Shown here: positions 5,611 through 42,968 of the stretch, piece after piece
How the letters are laid out: every line of letters begins with the position of its first letter
How positions within the stretch are numbered: position 1 is the first letter of the stretch
Source: Anaerolineales bacterium
GTDB lineage: Bacteria; Chloroflexota; Anaerolineae; Anaerolineales; UBA6663
Length of the DNA: 64,000 nt
Direction: 5' to 3'
Assembly: GCA_034434015.1 (NCBI GenBank)
Contig: DAOUAB010000111.1
Location: forward strand, 2,208-66,207
Program-made: the position numbers and the translations under genes
Notes under the pieces: model-generated
Told to the model about the DNA's origin: nothing
Database searches by the model: none
The model's input: only the letters and a program-made list of their open reading frames with translations

Positions 5611-5698
5611 CGGAGAGGGTGGGATTCGAACCCACGGTGGCCCAAGGGACCACAACGGTTTTCGAGACCGCCCCATTCGTCCACTCTGGCACCTCTCC
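5611..5698 (-). tRNA. tRNA-Ser (anticodon CGA), type II with long variable arm
   Basis: The reverse complement folds as a cloverleaf. Acceptor GGAGAGG/CCTCTCC plus discriminator G. Anticodon loop CTCGAAA. Variable arm present. T-arm GTGGGTTCGAATCCCAC. CCA is not encoded. Confidence 0.9.
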
Positions 5699-36195: not shown

Positions 36196-36223
36196 ATTAT
36201 AGGGGATTGAGGGGAAATGACAA
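36196..36223 (-). promoter_or_regulatory. Sigma70-type promoter candidate TTGTCA-16 nt-TATAAT for the amino-acid ABC operon
   Basis: Read on the minus strand, about 130 nt upstream of the SBP ATG. Confidence 0.5.
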
Positions 36224-36232
36224 TGCGGACGG

Positions 36233-37018
36233 CTAGGCCGATGGCGGCCCGCCGATGGCGGCCCCGCCAATGGCGGCCCGCACCTGCCGCGCCAGCGCGC
36301 CGAACTCGGGGCTGTGCTCCATCTCCAGATGGCGCGGGCGCGGCAGCGGCACGTCGAGCGCCAGCTTCACGCGGCCGGGGCGCGGGGTGAGGACCAGCAC
36401 ACGGTCGGCCAGCAGCAGCGCCTCGGCGATGGCGTGCGTGACCATGACGACCGTCGTCTTGCGCGCCTCCCAGATGCGCAGCAGTTCGGCGCTCAGCCGC
36501 TCGCGCGTCAGGGCGTCCAGCGCCCCGAACGGCTCATCCAGCAGCAGCACAGCCGGCGCCTGGATGAGCGCGCGCGCGATAGCCACCCGCTGCTCCATGC
36601 CTCCCGAGAGGTCGCCTGGCAGGCTGCTCTCGAAACCGGACAGGCCGACCAGCTCGACCAGGGCCAGGGCGCGCGCCCGGGCCTCGTCCGCCGGCGCGCC
36701 GTGTAATTCCAGCGGCAGCATGATGTTGGCCAGCACCGACCGCCAGGGCATCAGGTTGGCTTTCTGGAACACCAGGCCGATGTCGCGGCGCGGGCCGTCC
36801 AGGGGCTGGCCGCCCAGCAGCACCCGGCCGGCCGTGGGCCGCAGCAGGCCGGCCAGCAGCTTGAGCAGCGTGCTTTTGCCGCAGCCGGAGGGGCCGACCA
36901 CGCACACGAACTCCTGCGGGCAGACGGACAGGTTGACCTGTTCCAGCGCCTGGAGGCCGCCGTCGGCGTTGGGGTAAACGTACGCGAGGTGTTCGGCGAT
37001 GAGCAGCGGCGCGGACAC
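36233..37018 (-). CDS. ABC transporter ATP-binding protein (NitT/TauT family)
   Basis: GTG start overlaps the upstream TAG by 1 nt. [24 protein letters not shown] and [11 protein letters not shown] motifs. Confidence 0.85.
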
Positions 37019-37998
37019 TAGGGCACGAACTCGTTCGTGAAGGCCTGGCTCAGGTCGAGGGGGTGCGCCAGCAGGCCGGCGTCCAGCAGCGTGGTCTGCA
37101 TATTTTCCCAGGCGGCGGCCTGCGTCAGCCCGATCCGGTCCGCCCGCCACAGGTCCAGCGTCGCGGCCAGCACCTGCTTCTCCACGGCGTCGTCTTTCAA
37201 CGCCTCGACGTACTTTTTGGAAATGGCGTAGGCCTGCTCCGGGTCCGCCAGCGCGGCCTGGACGCCGCGCGTCATGGCGCGCACGAAGCGCCGGACGAGA
37301 TCGGGCTCCCGGGCCACGGTGGCTTCATTGGTCAGGACGCCGTTGGCGGCCAGGGTAGCGTAGTCGCTCACCTGGATCACCGAGAGTTGCTGGCCCTGGG
37401 CGGCCAGCCGGATCGGCTCGTTGTTGGAGTACACCACGGCCGCGTCTACCTGCCCGGCCTCCAGGGCCGCGACCTGCTGGAAGCCGACGACTTCGAGCGT
37501 CACGTCCTCGGGCGACAGGCCGGCCGCCTCCAGCAGGGCCAGCAGCCCGATGTAACTGGCGCCCTCCAGGACCGGCACGCCGATTTTCTTGCCGCGCAGG
37601 TCGGACGGCGCGGCGATGCCGGCGCTGGCCCTGGCCACCACCGCCACCGGGAACTTCTGGAACCAGGCCATGACGTAGACGACGGGCAGCTCCTGGGCGC
37701 GCGCCAGGAGCACCTGCTCGCCCGAGACGAGCGCGAACGGCAGCTCGCCTGCGCCGACGAGCTGCACGCCGTTGGTCTCAAACGAATAGTCGAACTCGAT
37801 CTGCAGGCCCTCCTCGGCGAAATAGCCCTGATCGGCCGCGACGTACAGGCTGGCGTATTGCACGCTGGGGATGTAACCCATCGGCAGGCGGATCTGGCGC
37901 AGCGCGGCGGGGGCCGTCGGCGAGGCCGGCGCGGCGACGGGGGCGCAGGCCGTCAGCCAGAAGAGCACAGCGAAACTCAGGCGCAAGAGACGGGACAT
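37018..37998 (-). CDS. ABC transporter substrate-binding protein, NMT1/THI5 (ThiY/SsuA)-like
   Basis: Start at MSRLLRLSFAVLFWLTAC (signal/lipobox). Periplasmic-binding fold typical of the NitT/TauT family. Confidence 0.75.
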   Translation of the reverse strand: MSRLLRLSFAVLFWLTACAPVAAPASPTAPAALRQIRLPMGYIPSVQYASLYVAADQGYFAEEGLQIEFDYSFETNGVQLVGAGELPFALVSGEQVLLARAQELPVVYVMAWFQKFPVAVVARASAGIAAPSDLRGKKIGVPVLEGASYIGLLALLEAAGLSPEDVTLEVVGFQQVAALEAGQVDAAVVYSNNEPIRLAAQGQQLSVIQVSDYATLAANGVLTNEATVAREPDLVRRFVRAMTRGVQAALADPEQAYAISKKYVEALKDDAVEKQVLAATLDLWRADRIGLTQAAAWENMQTTLLDAGLLAHPLDLSQAFTNEFVP

Positions 37999-38057: not shown

Positions 38058-38873
38058 TCAGCGTTTCCAGCGCAGCAAGCGGCGCTCCAGCAGCGTGACG
38101 GCGCCATACAGGCCGAGGGCCAGGGCCACCAGCGCGCCGACGGCCACGAACACCAGGGCGGTATCGTACTGGCCGCGTCCCAGGTTCACCAGGAAGCCCA
38201 GCCCGCGGTCGGCGCCGACGAACTCGCCCACCACCGCGCCGACCACGGCCAGCGTGGCCCCGATCTTCAGGCCGCCGAACAGGACAGGCAGGGCGGCCGG
38301 CACCTCCAGCTTGACGAACGTCTGCCAGCGCGTGGCGTTCAGCGCGCGCATCAGGTCGCGCAGTTCGGGCGCCACCGAGCGCAGGCCGACAACGGTGTTG
38401 ACCAGCATCGGGAAGAACACGATCAGGGCGCAGACCACCACCTTGGACAGCAGGCCCGGCCCGAGCCAGAGGACGAGCAGCGGCGCGATGGCCACCACCG
38501 GCACGGATTGCGAGGCGACGATGTACGGCGTCAGCGCGCGCTCCAGCGTCGGCGATTTGGCGATGACATAGCCCAGGACTGTGGCGACCGCCAGGCCGGC
38601 GCTCAACCCCGCGCCGACTTCCAGCAGCGTCACCTGGGTGTGGCGCCACAGCGTGCCGTCGCTCAGCAGGTCCAGGAGCCGCGCCCATACCCGGGCCGGC
38701 GGCGGCAGCAGGAAGGCCGGCAGCCCGCTGAAGCGGGCCACGGCCTCCCACAACAGCAGGGCGCCGGCGGCCGAGCCGAGGCCGGCCAGCCACCGCCGGT
38801 TGAGCCGCGGACCGGTCCGCGCCGGCGGCGTGGGCGAGAGCGTGGAGGGGAAAGTGGTCTTGGTCACAGTCAT
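38058..38873 (-). CDS. ABC transporter permease (NitT/TauT family)
   Basis: Six TM segments with a BPD-transporter EAA-like loop (LRDLMRALNATRWQTFVKLEVPAALP). Confidence 0.85.
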   Translation of the reverse strand: MTVTKTTFPSTLSPTPPARTGPRLNRRWLAGLGSAAGALLLWEAVARFSGLPAFLLPPPARVWARLLDLLSDGTLWRHTQVTLLEVGAGLSAGLAVATVLGYVIAKSPTLERALTPYIVASQSVPVVAIAPLLVLWLGPGLLSKVVVCALIVFFPMLVNTVVGLRSVAPELRDLMRALNATRWQTFVKLEVPAALPVLFGGLKIGATLAVVGAVVGEFVGADRGLGFLVNLGRGQYDTALVFVAVGALVALALGLYGAVTLLERRLLRWKR

Positions 38874-38903
38874 AACAAAACCCCGAAGAGGGACTCTTCG
38901 GGG
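38874..38903 (-). terminator. Terminator / SD-sequestering hairpin abutting the permease ATG
   Basis: Minus strand reads CCCCGAAGAG-TCC-CTCTTCGGGG, then TTTTGTT, then ATG. Confidence 0.6.
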
Positions 38904-39019
38904 CGGTGAGCGCGCCAGCCGCGCGGCGGCGCCGTCAGCCGGCGCGCAGCGGCCTGAGCTGATCGCCGTGCGCGCGGGCCGGGTCCGAAAACAACAACCC
39001 CGTTGACGTGATGTTCCAC

Positions 39020-39200
39020 GGCCAACGGGGCGGTCGCTCTACGGGCTGACAGCGAAAACGCAGAGCGTTTTCGCCGTAAACTGGCGCGCAGCGCCAGCGA
39101 CACCTTCTTTCAATCCCGACTATACGGTCGGCTCCGGATTTTCACCGGGATCATGCGGCCGGTCTGGCCGCTCGCGGGCTTGTGGGTGTGCGTCAGCACG
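39020..39200 (-). promoter_or_regulatory. Riboswitch-like structured leader; best guess cobalamin class (unverified)
   Basis: Minus-strand strings CCCGGTGAAAATCCGGAGCCGACCG (about 39146..39122) and AGCCCGTAGAGCGACCGCC (39047..39029) resemble the cobalamin-riboswitch core and B12 box. No covariance-model search was possible. Confidence 0.35.
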
Positions 39201-39333
39201 CACCTTTACCGCCGATCGGGAATTGAGCCGGTTTCGCCTGTCTCACGACCGCGGCGCGCAGCGCCGCGATAAGGAACGCACAGCGCTCCGACTCTCACCC
39301 TGCCCCGAAGGTTATTGATATACAATTGCAGAC

Positions 39334-39363
39334 ATTATATCGCCCGTTCACCGGGCCAGTCAA
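39334..39363 (-). promoter_or_regulatory. Sigma70-type promoter candidate TTGACT-18 nt-TATAAT driving the long leader
   Basis: Read on the minus strand within an AT-rich patch between divergent genes. Confidence 0.55.
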
Positions 39364-39425: not shown

Positions 39426-40730
39426 ATGCAGGCACAATTGCTTCGCCGGCTTGAGGCCAGGACCGCCGTCGTCGGCGTCGTCGGCCTGGGCTATGTGGGC
39501 CTGCCGCTGGCGGTGGAGTTTGCGCGCGCCGGCCTGCGCGTCATCGGCGTGGACGTGGACGCCCGCAAGGTCGATCACCTGCGCCACGGCCGCAGCTACG
39601 TGCAGGATGTGCCGGGCGACGTCGTCGCCGACTTCGTCGCCCGCGGCCGGCTCACGGCTGCCGCCGACTACGCCGGGCTGCGCCAGGCCGACGCCGTGAT
39701 CATCTGCGTGCCCACGCCGCTGCGCAAGACGCGTGACCCGGACATGGCCCACGTGGTGGACGCGGCGGACCGGGTCATGGCGCTCTGCCATCCCGGCCTG
39801 CTGATCGTGCTCGAGAGCACCACCTACCCCGGCACCACCGAGGAGATTTTCGAGGCGCGTCTCAAAGAGCGCGGCTTCCGCGTGGGCGAGGACGTCTTCC
39901 TGGCGTTTTCGCCGGAGCGGATCGACCCCGGCAACCCGCGCTACGGCGTGCGCAACACGCCCAAGGTCGTCGGCGGCACGACGCCGGCCTGCGCGGAAAC
40001 GGCCGTCGCCCTGTATCGACTCGCGGTGGACACGGTCGTGCCGGTCTCGTCGCCGCGCGCGGCCGAGATGGTGAAGCTGCTGGAGAACACCTTCCGGGCC
40101 GTCAACATCGGCCTGGTGAACGAGGTGGCGCTGATGTGCGCCCGGCTGGATGTCGATGTCTGGGAGGTGATCGAGGCGGCGGCCACCAAACCGTACGGCT
40201 TTATGAAGTTCACGCCCGGGCCGGGCATCGGCGGGCATTGTCTGCCCATCGACCCGCTCTACCTCTCCTGGAAGCTCAAGACCCTCAACTACACCGCGCG
40301 CTTCATCGAGCTGGCGGACACGATCAACTCTCAGATGCCGCACCACGTCATCGGCCTGGTGGCCGACGCGCTGAACGAGGACGGCAAACCTCTGCGCGGC
40401 GCGCAGGTGCTGGTGCTGGGCGCGGCCTACAAGAAGGACGTCGACGACGTGCGCGAGTCGCCCGCCCTGGACGTGATGATCGAATTGCAGAAGCGCCACG
40501 CCCAGGTGCGCTACGCCGACCCGCACGTGCCGGAGCTGCGTCTGGGCGACGCGACCCTGCGCGCGCAGCCGCTCACGGCCGGGGCCCTGGCCGCCGCCGA
40601 CTGCGTGGTGGTCGTCACCGACCACTCGGCCTTCGACTGGGACCTGGTCGGCGAGCACGCGCGCGTGATCGTGGACACGCGCAACGCGCTCAGGGGCCGC
40701 CGCACGCGCGCGCGGGTGGTGAAGCTGTAG
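39426..40730 (+). CDS. Nucleotide-sugar (UDP-glucose/GDP-mannose family) 6-dehydrogenase
   Basis: Start at MQAQLL. NAD fold VGVVGLGYVGLPLA and catalytic GGHCLPIDP. Length 434 aa. Confidence 0.88.
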   Translation: MQAQLLRRLEARTAVVGVVGLGYVGLPLAVEFARAGLRVIGVDVDARKVDHLRHGRSYVQDVPGDVVADFVARGRLTAAADYAGLRQADAVIICVPTPLRKTRDPDMAHVVDAADRVMALCHPGLLIVLESTTYPGTTEEIFEARLKERGFRVGEDVFLAFSPERIDPGNPRYGVRNTPKVVGGTTPACAETAVALYRLAVDTVVPVSSPRAAEMVKLLENTFRAVNIGLVNEVALMCARLDVDVWEVIEAAATKPYGFMKFTPGPGIGGHCLPIDPLYLSWKLKTLNYTARFIELADTINSQMPHHVIGLVADALNEDGKPLRGAQVLVLGAAYKKDVDDVRESPALDVMIELQKRHAQVRYADPHVPELRLGDATLRAQPLTAGALAAADCVVVVTDHSAFDWDLVGEHARVIVDTRNALRGRRTRARVVKL

Positions 40731-40739
40731 GCCGGCCGC

Positions 40740-42968
40740 ATGTCCGCCTCCCCCGCGCCTCCGCCTCAGCGCCGCGACCGGGCCGTGGCCCTCGGCCTGG
40801 GCCTGTTCTGCCTGGCGCTCTACCTGCTGACATTCGCGGGCCAGTTCCGGTCCATTGATGAGCTGGCGCTGTACGCCGCCGCCGAGAGCCTGGCGCAGAC
40901 CGGCCGGCCGGGTCTGGACCTGATCCGTTTCGCCGCCTACCACAACTTCATCAACGCCTTTGAGCCGGGGCAATCGGCCCTGGCCGCGCCCCTGGTGTGG
41001 CTGGCGCGCCGCGCGCCCGAGGTCAGCAACCTGCACGCCGCGCTGCTGCTCAACCCCGTGATCACGGCCCTCAACGCCGCCGCGCTCTACGGGCTGGGCC
41101 GGCGGCTGGGTTACGCCGTGCGGCCCGCGCTCGGTCTGGCCGGCGCCTTCGCGCTCGGCACCCTGGCCTGGCCGTACGCCAAATCTTTTTTGCGCGAGCC
41201 GGCGGTCGGCTTGCTGTGGACGCTGAGCCTGGGAGGCCTGCTCCGTTTCGCCGAACGCCCGACGGGGCGGGCCGCCGCCGCCGCCGTCGCCGCCGCCGCC
41301 GCGGCGCTGGCCTTCAAGTTCGCGGCGGTGGTCGCGCTGCCGGTGGCGGCGCTGGGCCTGGCCTGGCCGCTGTACCGCGCGCGCCGCGTGCCGCTGGCCT
41401 GGCTGCTGGCCGGCGGCGGCCTGCTGCTCGCCGGCCTGGCCGCCGCGGCCCTGCTCGTCTTCAACCTGCGCGGCTACCCGCTGTCTGCGCTGCTGGGCAA
41501 CTTCACGGCCAATCCCTTCAGCCGGGAGGGGATCACGCCGTGGTATGGCCTGCTCTTCAGCCCGGGCAAGGGCCTGTTCGTGTTCGCGCCGGTTACGGCG
41601 CTGGCGGTCCTCGGCTGGCCGGGTTTCTTTCATCGCCACCGCCTGCCCGCCGTCCTGGTGGTGGTCTGGACGCTGGCGATGCTGGCCGCGCTGCGCGCTT
41701 CGGGCTGGTGGGGCGGCCTGGCCTGGGGGCCGCGCTATCTGCTGCCGCTGGTCCCGGTGTTGATGCTGCCGGCGCTGGAGGCCCTGGCGCGCTGGCGCTG
41801 GGCCTGGGCCCTGGCGGCGCTCAGCGTGCTGCTCCAGGCGCTGGTGGCCGCCGCGAACTGGAGCGTCGGCTACGCCGGCCTGTTCGAGCGTTACCCTAAC
41901 CCGGACACCAGCCTCGGGCTGGACTGGACGCGCTGGGCGGAGACGCCGCTCTTCCGGCTGTTGCAGCGCTGGGGGCCGGGCGCGTGGGACCTCGTCTGGC
42001 TGCGCGCCGGGCCGAACGGCGAAGTCAACTTCGACCTGCCGCTCGGCCTGGGCCTCGGCCTGGCCGTGGTCGTCACCGGCGCGGCGCTGGCCTGGCTGTT
42101 GCGCGGCGGGCGCGCCCGGCCCGCGCTGGCGGCCGGCGGCCTGGCGGCGGCGGCCGCCATCCCGCTGCTGCTCTGGCGCGGCTACTGGAACCTGCCGGAT
42201 TACGGCGGGCTCCCGGCGGACCTGGCGCGGTCGCTCGCGCGCGAAGTGAGCGGCGGCCCGTACGCGCCGGAGCGCCTGGTCAACGTCTCGGCCGACTTCG
42301 GCGTCTACCCCTGGCTGGGCCTGCTCAAAGGCCCGGCCCGCGCGGCCTGGATCTCGCCGCTGGAAGAGGAGCCTGGCGCGGTCCTGACGCCCGGAAGCGG
42401 CGAGCGCCTGGCCGTCGTCATGGACTGGACGCATCTGTGGGGCCACGCGCCGCAGGCGACCCTGGCCTGGCTGAATGCGAACGCGTATCGCTTCGCCGGC
42501 GGCTGGCGTGAAGGGCTGGAAGTGTATTACTACAGCCTGGAGGCTGAGCCGGAGCAGAAACTGCCGGCGGCCGCGGTCTGGCCGCTGGGCGTGACGTTGA
42601 CCGAAGTGCGCGTGCCGCGGGCGTTTGGGCGCGGCGATGCGCTGCCGGTGGCCCTCCGCCTGCGCTGCGAGGCCGACCCGTGCGACACGACCACCGCGCT
42701 GTTCGTCAACCTGCTGGGGCCGGACGGCGTGGTGCTGGCGGGCGGCGATAACCCGGTGCAGTTCGGGGCGCTGACGCCGGGGCGCTGGCGGGCCGGCCAG
42801 ACCGTGGTGGACCGGCGCGGGGTGTGGATCCCGCCCGACGCGCCGCCGGGGGAGTATGAATTGCTCGCCGGCTTTGTGAACGCCGAGGGCTTCGTGCCCG
42901 TGACCGGCGCGGGCGGCGAGACCGCGCCCTATGCCACGCTGACCCGCGTCGTCATCGGCGCGCCGTAA
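40740..42968 (+). CDS. Large polytopic membrane protein, putative GT-C (ArnT/PMT-like) glycosyltransferase with C-terminal soluble domain
   Basis: At least 10 predicted hydrophobic helices. An early-loop acidic motif FRSIDELALY resembles GT-C first-loop D/E motifs. About 230-aa non-membrane C-terminus. The family assignment is an inference. Confidence 0.45.
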   Translation: MSASPAPPPQRRDRAVALGLGLFCLALYLLTFAGQFRSIDELALYAAAESLAQTGRPGLDLIRFAAYHNFINAFEPGQSALAAPLVWLARRAPEVSNLHAALLLNPVITALNAAALYGLGRRLGYAVRPALGLAGAFALGTLAWPYAKSFLREPAVGLLWTLSLGGLLRFAERPTGRAAAAAVAAAAAALAFKFAAVVALPVAALGLAWPLYRARRVPLAWLLAGGGLLLAGLAAAALLVFNLRGYPLSALLGNFTANPFSREGITPWYGLLFSPGKGLFVFAPVTALAVLGWPGFFHRHRLPAVLVVVWTLAMLAALRASGWWGGLAWGPRYLLPLVPVLMLPALEALARWRWAWALAALSVLLQALVAAANWSVGYAGLFERYPNPDTSLGLDWTRWAETPLFRLLQRWGPGAWDLVWLRAGPNGEVNFDLPLGLGLGLAVVVTGAALAWLLRGGRARPALAAGGLAAAAAIPLLLWRGYWNLPDYGGLPADLARSLAREVSGGPYAPERLVNVSADFGVYPWLGLLKGPARAAWISPLEEEPGAVLTPGSGERLAVVMDWTHLWGHAPQATLAWLNANAYRFAGGWREGLEVYYYSLEAEPEQKLPAAAVWPLGVTLTEVRVPRAFGRGDALPVALRLRCEADPCDTTTALFVNLLGPDGVVLAGGDNPVQFGALTPGRWRAGQTVVDRRGVWIPPDAPPGEYELLAGFVNAEGFVPVTGAGGETAPYATLTRVVIGAP

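Follow-up and report, generated by a model that had tools for sequence, protein, structure and literature searches.

Which signal controls the three-gene ATP-binding cassette (ABC) importer operon on the minus strand of the 64,000-nt stretch of Anaerolineales DNA analysed here (hereafter the window; contig DAOUAB010000111.1), and what does this importer carry? The operon is preceded by a long structured leader, which an earlier note, made from the sequence alone, had read as a cobalamin riboswitch placed oddly over a ThiXYZ-type pyrimidine salvage system. Our analyses point to another ligand. We assign the leader to a single flavin mononucleotide (FMN) riboswitch (RF00050) controlling a RibXY(Z)-type riboflavin importer operon, and we put the probability of this reading at roughly 0.88. 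The leader is a previously unannotated FMN riboswitch of a known class, in which the L2 loop holds an insert of unusual length and the expression platform consists of two hairpins.

The earlier outline of the leader held up. A sigma-70-type promoter (TTGACT-18-TATAAT, 39363..39334, minus strand) matches at 11 of 12 positions, and one promoter-like site of this kind was found compared with 0.1 expected in shuffled sequences. From the inferred transcription start at about 39327, a non-coding leader of about 454 nt, which had been estimated at about 440 nt, extends to the permease ATG at 38873. This start codon is backed by three orthologues (L001, L002, and L005), whose alignments begin at residue 1 on the ATG, and public gene calls give the identical permease start. 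Here and below, L001, L002, L005, L006, L009, L016, L035, and L081 label public loci that were compared with the window. The leader is as self-complementary as had been claimed, with a structure z score of -6.4 to -7.0 relative to shuffled controls, far above chance. Because its sequence is 100% identical across four independent public assemblies, it is not an assembly artefact.

We searched the 651-nt region around the leader alone against Rfam, with permissive filters and E ≤ 10. RF00050 (FMN) was the only riboswitch family matched, at 39230..39109 (50.6 bits, E 1.7e-10), and the match covers model positions 17-128 of 138. The cobalamin family RF00174 gave no match at E ≤ 10 in these 651 nt, nor did it match anywhere in the window at gathering level. 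A thiamine pyrophosphate (TPP) riboswitch, as expected of a ThiXYZ regulon, was also considered and rejected, as RF00059 had no match at E ≤ 10 in the 651-nt region; the earlier failure to find a TPP core agrees with this. Weak matches of the leader to ClpQY_promoter, CRISPR-DR20, CRISPR-DR9, and RAGATH-32 (E 0.05-10) lie on GC hairpins and were attributed to chance. At gathering level, the search of the whole 64-kb window returned a tRNA alone and no riboswitch. The earlier note had proposed an Rfam search of the leader as its own check, counting a clearly better score of another class against cobalamin. RF00050 matches and RF00174 does not, and the cobalamin class is refuted on those terms, although the proposal of a riboswitch leader with a platform that buries the Shine-Dalgarno (SD) sequence ahead of a ThiXYZ-like importer stands.

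The RF00050 match lies within a complete 211-nt FMN aptamer (RFN element) at 39312..39102 (minus strand), which was delimited by RF00050, an orthologue alignment, and R1, a covariance model built from 14 orthologous aptamers with the window left out. R1 matches 39316..39098 over its entire length (positions 1-158 of 158) with 110.8 bits and E 4.6e-30. It yields this match only in 64 kb, and we conclude that there is one aptamer and no tandem element, contrary to what had been entertained. The 5' part of the aptamer, upstream of the RF00050 match, is ACCUUCGGGGCAGGGUGA at 39312..39295, which supplies the canonical 5' strand of P1, J1/2, and the first part of P2. Between it and AAUUCCC-GAUCGGCGGUA lies a 70-nt insert (39294..39225).

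All helices lie on the minus strand. P1 (ACCUUC/GAAGGU) pairs 39312-39307 with 39107-39102 and P2 (GGG/CCC) pairs 39300-39298 with 39220-39218. Domain-closing pairs join 39214-39213 with 39130-39129. P3 (39212-39209 with 39177-39174) has a variable hairpin in L3, P4 occupies 39171-39155, P5 occupies 39150-39133 and bears the L5 T-loop UGAAAAU, and P6 occupies 39127-39116. Each pair listed for these helices was checked and is a standard pair. An extended P3 occurs in about half of FMN riboswitches (PMC6298564).

All positions that are invariant in the 14 orthologous aptamers are also present in the window aptamer. The junction strings (J1/2 GGGGC, J2/3 CGGCGG, J3/4 CCGCGAG, and J5/6 GCCGAC) agree with the FMN consensus, and the sole departure, C to U in J2/3, is also found in orthologues above the gathering cutoff. 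Judged by these consensus strings, following a published criterion (PMC6298564), the ligand-contacting nucleotides are unchanged. T-loops are present on both P5 and P2, the latter split by the insert (UGA-insert-AAUU). The element thus shares with RF00050 riboswitches such as B. subtilis ribD and F. nucleatum impX (PDB 3F2Q) the P1-P6 junction and its conserved nucleotides, the L2 and L5 T-loops, the optional extended P3, and the association with riboflavin supply genes.

The same element recurs at orthologous loci, which bears on the conservation that the earlier note had named as a further check. Relatives of the binding protein are all from Chloroflexota, mostly Anaerolineales metagenome-assembled genomes. 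RF00050 matches at full length and above the gathering score upstream of the permease gene in 14 of 17 loci, and two more loci score 63-65 bits. The FMN core is found in the same place at approximately 60 orthologous loci of Chloroflexota.

What, then, of the resemblance to a cobalamin element? The strings GGUGAAAAUCC and AGCCCGUAGAGCGACC do look superficially like the cobalamin core and the B12 box, and the three strings that had been quoted are all present in the sequence (39149..39125, 39047..39029, and 39239..39201). However, their structural roles are different. The supposed core at 39149..39125 comprises P5, the L5 T-loop, J5/6, and P6 of the FMN aptamer. The supposed B12 box at 39047..39029 is the lower 5' flank of a terminator-like hairpin (T1, below), pairs with the U-rich tail of that hairpin, and has no conserved counterpart in L001, the closest orthologue. 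The supposed second core at 39239..39201 is the end of the L2 insert together with the P2 3' strand, J2/3, and P3 of the same aptamer. FMN P5/L5/J5-6/P6 and the T1 lower stem fully explain the cobalamin-like strings.

FMN and adenosylcobalamin (AdoCbl) aptamers are known to have a double T-loop substructure in common (Barrick & Breaker 2007, PMC2258182). The loops capping FMN P2, P3, and P5 follow approximately the same consensus as the AdoCbl P4 loop and P6-P7 bulge (PMC2258182), and we interpret these shared T-loop features as the source of the B12 resemblance. Apart from them, the leader differs from RF00174 in its junction architecture, in the lack of a covariance-model match, and in the genes, none of which is B12-related. 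With bona fide FMN riboswitches at the orthologous loci and a single aptamer in the window, we regard an AdoCbl riboswitch, tandem or not, over a ThiXYZ-type pyrimidine salvage importer as having next to no chance of being correct.

The operon downstream has the composition that had been described, as domain matches agree on a permease, an NMT1/THI5-like binding protein, and a NitT/TauT-type ATPase, all on the minus strand. The first gene (38058..38873) encodes a ribX-like ABC permease of 271 aa (BPD_transp_1, E 1.9e-33), similar to TauC/SsuC. The second (37018..37998) encodes a ribY-like substrate-binding lipoprotein of 326 aa from the NMT1/THI5 (ThiY) family (NMT1, E 2.3e-53), whose best match among solved structures is ThiY 3IX1 (E 4e-26), confirming its fold family. 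The third (36233..37018) encodes a ribZ-like ABC ATPase of 261 aa and the NitT/TauT type, and its GTG start shares one base with the TAG stop of ribY. The operon ends after ribZ.

RibXY was defined as a ThiXYZ homologue with an FMN riboswitch upstream in all Chloroflexi analysed (Sun et al. 2013, PMC3766115). The ribXY genes of C. aurantiacus rescue an E. coli riboflavin auxotroph (Gutierrez-Preciado et al. 2015, PMC4418817), and the same report cites evidence that RibY binds flavins and places the ATPase gene ribZ alongside in a few Chloroflexi. In other phyla, RibXY homologues sit behind TPP, T-box, or ykkC elements (PMC4418817), suggesting that the leader predicts the substrate better than the name of the protein family does. 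Genes of the TauC family are often found with FMN riboswitches (PMC6298564). In the window, a COG0600-type permease and a COG0715/NMT1 protein are encoded in one operon with an FMN riboswitch ahead, which is the operational definition of RibXY (PMC4418817). Our assignment uses this definition and not the RibY identity threshold of the same work (at least 38% over at least 80% coverage).

Both genes of this pair, ThiXY homologues in each case, and the preceding FMN riboswitch are thus shared with the RibXY and RibXYZ systems of the same phylum (Caur_0816-0817), and ribZ is present as in some Chloroflexi. The window differs in coming from an uncultured Anaerolineales lineage, and its gene order is permease, binding protein, ATPase. 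We take Sun 2013, Gutierrez-Preciado 2015, and Rodionova 2015 to be the reference set for these systems. The transporter family and fold are also those of the ThiXYZ importer of hydroxymethylpyrimidine and formylaminopyrimidine (HMP/FAMP; ThiY, PDB 3IX1). However, ThiXYZ genes are found under TPP riboswitches, whereas this leader has no TPP match and its predicted regulatory ligand is FMN, from which we take riboflavin, rather than a thiamine pyrimidine, to be the substrate. The operon agrees with the RibXY(Z) riboflavin importers described in the literature, with uptake predicted to be FMN-repressed. Since FMN control of ThiXYZ homologues has been published for Chloroflexi, nothing odd remains of the B12-controlled thiamine-type operon that had been supposed.

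How might FMN act on this operon? The platform following the aptamer is about 230 nt long, and its features all lie on the minus strand. After P1 come two spacer hairpins, hpA (39097-39081) and hpB (39077-39049); L001 has two hairpins of different sequence in the same position. They are followed by T1, an intrinsic-terminator-like hairpin GCCCCGUUGGC..GUCAACGGGGU (39031-38997, -22.5 kcal/mol) with the U-rich tail UGUUGUUUUCGG (38996-38985). The lower stem of T1 reaches 39044, and its 5' arm GCCCCGUU and the U-rich tail are conserved in L001, L002, L005, and L009. A further spacer hairpin, hpC (38982-38932), occupies the interval between T1 and T2. T2 (GCCCCGAAGAG-UCC-CUCUUCGGGGU, 38904-38880, -18.8 kcal/mol) is both a terminator-like hairpin and an SD sequestor. 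It has 11 bp, seven of them GC, and is followed by UUUGUU and the AUG. The only SD-like GGGG of the leader (38884-38881) is located inside T2, 7 nt before the AUG, so that the description of a GC hairpin that abuts the start codon and buries the only SD-like string proved accurate.

T1 and T2 both begin with GCCCCG, which is complementary to the invariant aptamer strand CUUCGGGGC (39310-39302), and the T2 5' arm GCCCCGAAG complements all 9 nt of this strand without a mismatch. Such arms imply an OFF switch. The duplex energies of CUUCGGGGC are -22.0 kcal/mol with the T2 arm and -20.1 kcal/mol with the T1 arm, compared with -7.4 kcal/mol for P1 alone. In the centroid fold of the whole leader, the aptamer 5' strand is paired with the T2 arm. 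Enforcing the anti-sequestor fold gives -246.2 kcal/mol compared with a minimum free energy (MFE) of -246.8 kcal/mol, a cost of 0.6 kcal/mol. For a partial transcript ending at the T1 loop, the MFE structure pairs the aptamer CGGGGC with the T1 arm.

Comparison of the orthologues points the same way. Most of them have a T2-like hairpin (CCCCGRRG...CGGGG-U-tract-AUG). Among 39 orthologues with a scorable hairpin, the one nearest the AUG has a CCCCGRRG 5' arm in 24, and this arm complements CUUCGGGG. By chance, about 1 in 16 would be expected, although these loci are not independent of one another. Both T1 and T2 are present in the immediate clade (the window, L001, L002, L005, and L009), whereas most other orthologues have one hairpin, immediately ahead of the AUG. 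Within the clade, the hairpin arms GCCCCGUU and GCCCCGRAG are conserved and the loops differ.

From this comparative and energetic support, we infer an OFF-switch mechanism. With FMN bound, P1 and the J1/2 strand CUUCGGGGC would be locked in the aptamer, leaving T1 and T2 free to form. T1 and its U-rich tail would then terminate transcription. In transcripts that read through, T2 would form as a second terminator-like hairpin and bury the SD-like GGGG. When FMN is scarce, the free CUUCGGGGC would pair with the GCCCCG arms, acting as an anti-terminator at T1 and as a 9-bp anti-sequestor at T2, and the operon would be transcribed and translated and riboflavin imported. This mechanism agrees with the literature, in which a class of 'dual transcription and translation attenuation' exists for riboswitches generally and transcription attenuation may be over-represented in Chloroflexi riboswitches (PMC2258182). 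The OFF logic, in which the 5' arm of a terminator or sequestor complements the aptamer 5' strand, would be shared with RF00050 riboswitches; the window platform differs in its length and in its two successive terminator-like hairpins. Canonical FMN riboswitches reportedly use the P1 5' strand as the anti-terminator partner (Winkler 2002, Vitreschak 2002).

Several points weigh against our reading. The RF00050 score of 50.6 is below the gathering score of 66.2, and the match is local only. Nearest-neighbour folding is unreliable for a GC-rich RNA of 468 nt; the unconstrained MFE misses the native aptamer junction, and forcing the aptamer costs 20 kcal/mol in the model. As the junction is missed both in the 219-nt aptamer and in the whole leader, we used folds only for local hairpins and for comparing alternatives. 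Concerning the switch, only six contiguous bases of the T1 5' arm are complementary to the aptamer strand, a simple terminator scan of the leader did not call T1, and the T2 anti-sequestor pairing would span about 400 nt.

The first of these points leads to the insert. The 70-nt insert (39294..39225, minus strand) lies within the L2 T-loop. Its predicted fold has a closing helix, GAGUC/GGCUC (39294-39290 with 39229-39225), and an interior of three to four small hairpins, one of them GGCGC-UGC-GCGCC. The RF00050 model fails to bridge these 70 nt and thereby loses P1 and the P2 5' strand, which accounts for the sub-gathering score. The orthologues show the same relationship, as the closest one, whose insert is 33 nt long, reaches 63.4 bits, and shorter inserts go with scores of 69-104 bits. 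On this comparison of scores by insert length, the length of the insert would explain the Rfam shortfall.

The site of the insert is a permissive one. FMN T-loops of the UGAAA type cap P2 and P5 and are optionally interrupted by a helix at one position (PMC2258182, PMC3764141), and the L2 T-loop is known to tolerate an inserted helix there (PMC2258182). Among about 67 Chloroflexota loci that encode relatives of the binding protein, L2 takes the canonical 7-nt form in about 11 and has a helix between UGN and AAUU in about 56. Short single helices are thus known at this place and are usual in Anaerolineae ribXY leaders; the window differs from other RF00050 members in that its L2 is split by a multi-hairpin insert, one of the longest in the set. 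Other orthologues have inserts of 77-167 nt with the core kept.

We tested the base of this helix for covariation in a register-fixed alignment of 53 distinct sequences. Of the alignment cells, 84.9% are paired, and all six pairs vary on both sides. The covariation score is 0.528 compared with 0.203 in shuffles, none of 500 of which reached 0.528, and slid partners score at most 0.242. The middle pair of P2 alternates between G-C (37 sequences) and A-U (16 sequences). The conservation and covariation that the earlier note had proposed as a check are both present, in an FMN riboswitch. Comparison of the predicted folds across loci revealed no shared architecture inside the long L2 inserts, and their differing interiors look like unconserved expansions.

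Could the insert have broken the aptamer? In that case, the element would be decaying or non-functional, with the L2-L6 contact lost and the hairpins controlling the operon constitutively. The insert is among the longest of the family, its interior is not conserved, it holds a 13-mer present twice more in the leader, and the L2 T-loop takes part in the L2-L6 contact (PMC3764141). However, no invariant nucleotide has been lost, and the two halves of the split T-loop, UGA and AAUU, are both in place. The insert enters exactly where helices are tolerated, its closing helix is kept by covariation across the 53 loci, other orthologues combine even longer inserts with a kept core, and the identical sequence was recovered in four independent samples. 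We consider decay very unlikely.

A low score and an unusual peripheral domain could also mark an FMN-class variant with altered specificity, for riboflavin, lumichrome, or another flavin, like the variants of C. difficile. Variants of this kind are on record, with transporters as associated genes (PMC6298564). However, the known ones differ at conserved ligand-contacting G positions and mostly activate exporters (PMC6298564), whereas the junction nucleotides in the window match the FMN consensus and the orthologues scoring 69-104 bits, the genes encode an importer, and the logic of the platform is OFF. The full-length R1 match also indicates that the low score comes from the insert and not from changes in the core. 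We therefore find a change of specificity highly improbable and retain FMN as the ligand.

Four loci (L006:2783-2931, L009:2714-2865, L016:2737-2886, and L035) have no L2 insert but about 30 nt inserted in L6, which is the contact partner of L2. A convincing combination of the two inserts was seen at no locus. Three loci with apparent inserts in L2 and L6 were rejected, as their P3-P5 spans are implausible and look like regex artefacts. Inserts in L2 or L6 could be alternative expansions of the same P2-P6 peripheral domain, and the four loci may represent one clade. From this either-L2-or-L6 pattern comes a hint that selection keeps the inserts as structural or functional modules and that they are not neutral junk.

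Returning to the OFF switch, which of its hairpins would respond to FMN? One possibility, nested within the FMN reading and not exclusive of it, is that only one does. Either T2 is the ancestral regulated terminator and sequestor, with T1 acting as a constitutive attenuator or a pause site, or T1 is regulated and T2 does no more than keep basal translation low. A single CCCCGRRG hairpin by the AUG is found in most orthologues, with two confined to the immediate clade of the window, and the complementarity between T1 and the aptamer is the shorter one (6 contiguous bp). However, the T1 arm GCCCCGUU is conserved in sequence even though the loops and upper stems of the relatives differ, suggesting a constraint beyond hairpin formation, and the MFE structure of the partial transcript uses the T1 arm as the anti-terminator partner. 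We hold a single responsive hairpin to be possible, at odds well short of even.

More tentative again is a two-checkpoint switch combined with selected L2/L6 inserts, in which CUUCGGGGC would serve T1 and then, about 130 nt on, T2, over a range of about 400 nt. If the two-checkpoint switch were true, one ligand-binding event would gate transcription and then translation. We think this combination doubtful.

Two further observations concern the leader itself. The hairpin module GGCGC-UGC-GCGCC occurs three times in the 450-nt leader, twice exactly and once with one mismatch: in the L2 insert (39265-39253), in the hairpin after P1 (39095-39083), and in the T1-T2 spacer (38953-38941), all on the minus strand. 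In the whole 64 kb, the exact 13-mer has three occurrences, and with one mismatch allowed there are 11 compared with 2.8 expected. The pattern points to a stable hairpin having been reused or duplicated locally. In a Joint Genome Institute (JGI) record for L081, an opposite-strand range of 308 nt (L081:1681-1988, approximately window 39318-39011) is listed with a 22-residue 'product'. The start of this feature coincides almost exactly with the aptamer 5' end and its end falls in the T1 loop; a regulatory-RNA call that was recorded wrongly or a spurious small open reading frame (ORF) could be behind it.

Around the locus, the promoter sits in a divergent intergenic region, and its plus-strand neighbour is a UDP-glucose/GDP-mannose dehydrogenase gene (39426..40730). 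Downstream of that gene, a 742-aa ORF (40740-42968, plus strand) is called in public annotations and has no Pfam match either here or in those annotations. On the other side, ribZ is followed by an unrelated amino-acid ABC transporter operon (SBP_bac_3 / BPD_transp_1). Directly after the ribZ stop and before this operon is a promoter-like site, TTGTCA-16-TATAAT (36223..36196, minus strand), which matches at 11 of 12 positions. The only gathering-level Rfam match in the window is an 88-nt tRNA at 5611-5698 (minus strand, 54.6 bits) with a long variable arm, probably tRNA-Ser(CGA), with the anticodon loop CUCGAAA read from the alignment.

The finding corrects a misassignment, as the vitamin concerned is B2 and not B12, and it removes the need for an exotic cross-regulation between B12 and thiamine. 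It provides a predicted functional annotation, riboflavin uptake repressed by FMN, for an unannotated ABC operon of an uncultured Anaerolineales lineage. Riboswitch specialists may find modest curiosities in the double-hairpin platform and in the alternative expansion of L2 or L6. More generally, genuine FMN riboswitches with long L2 inserts drop below the Rfam gathering score. Since such inserts depress the score, riboflavin regulons in Chloroflexota metagenomes are probably under-called.

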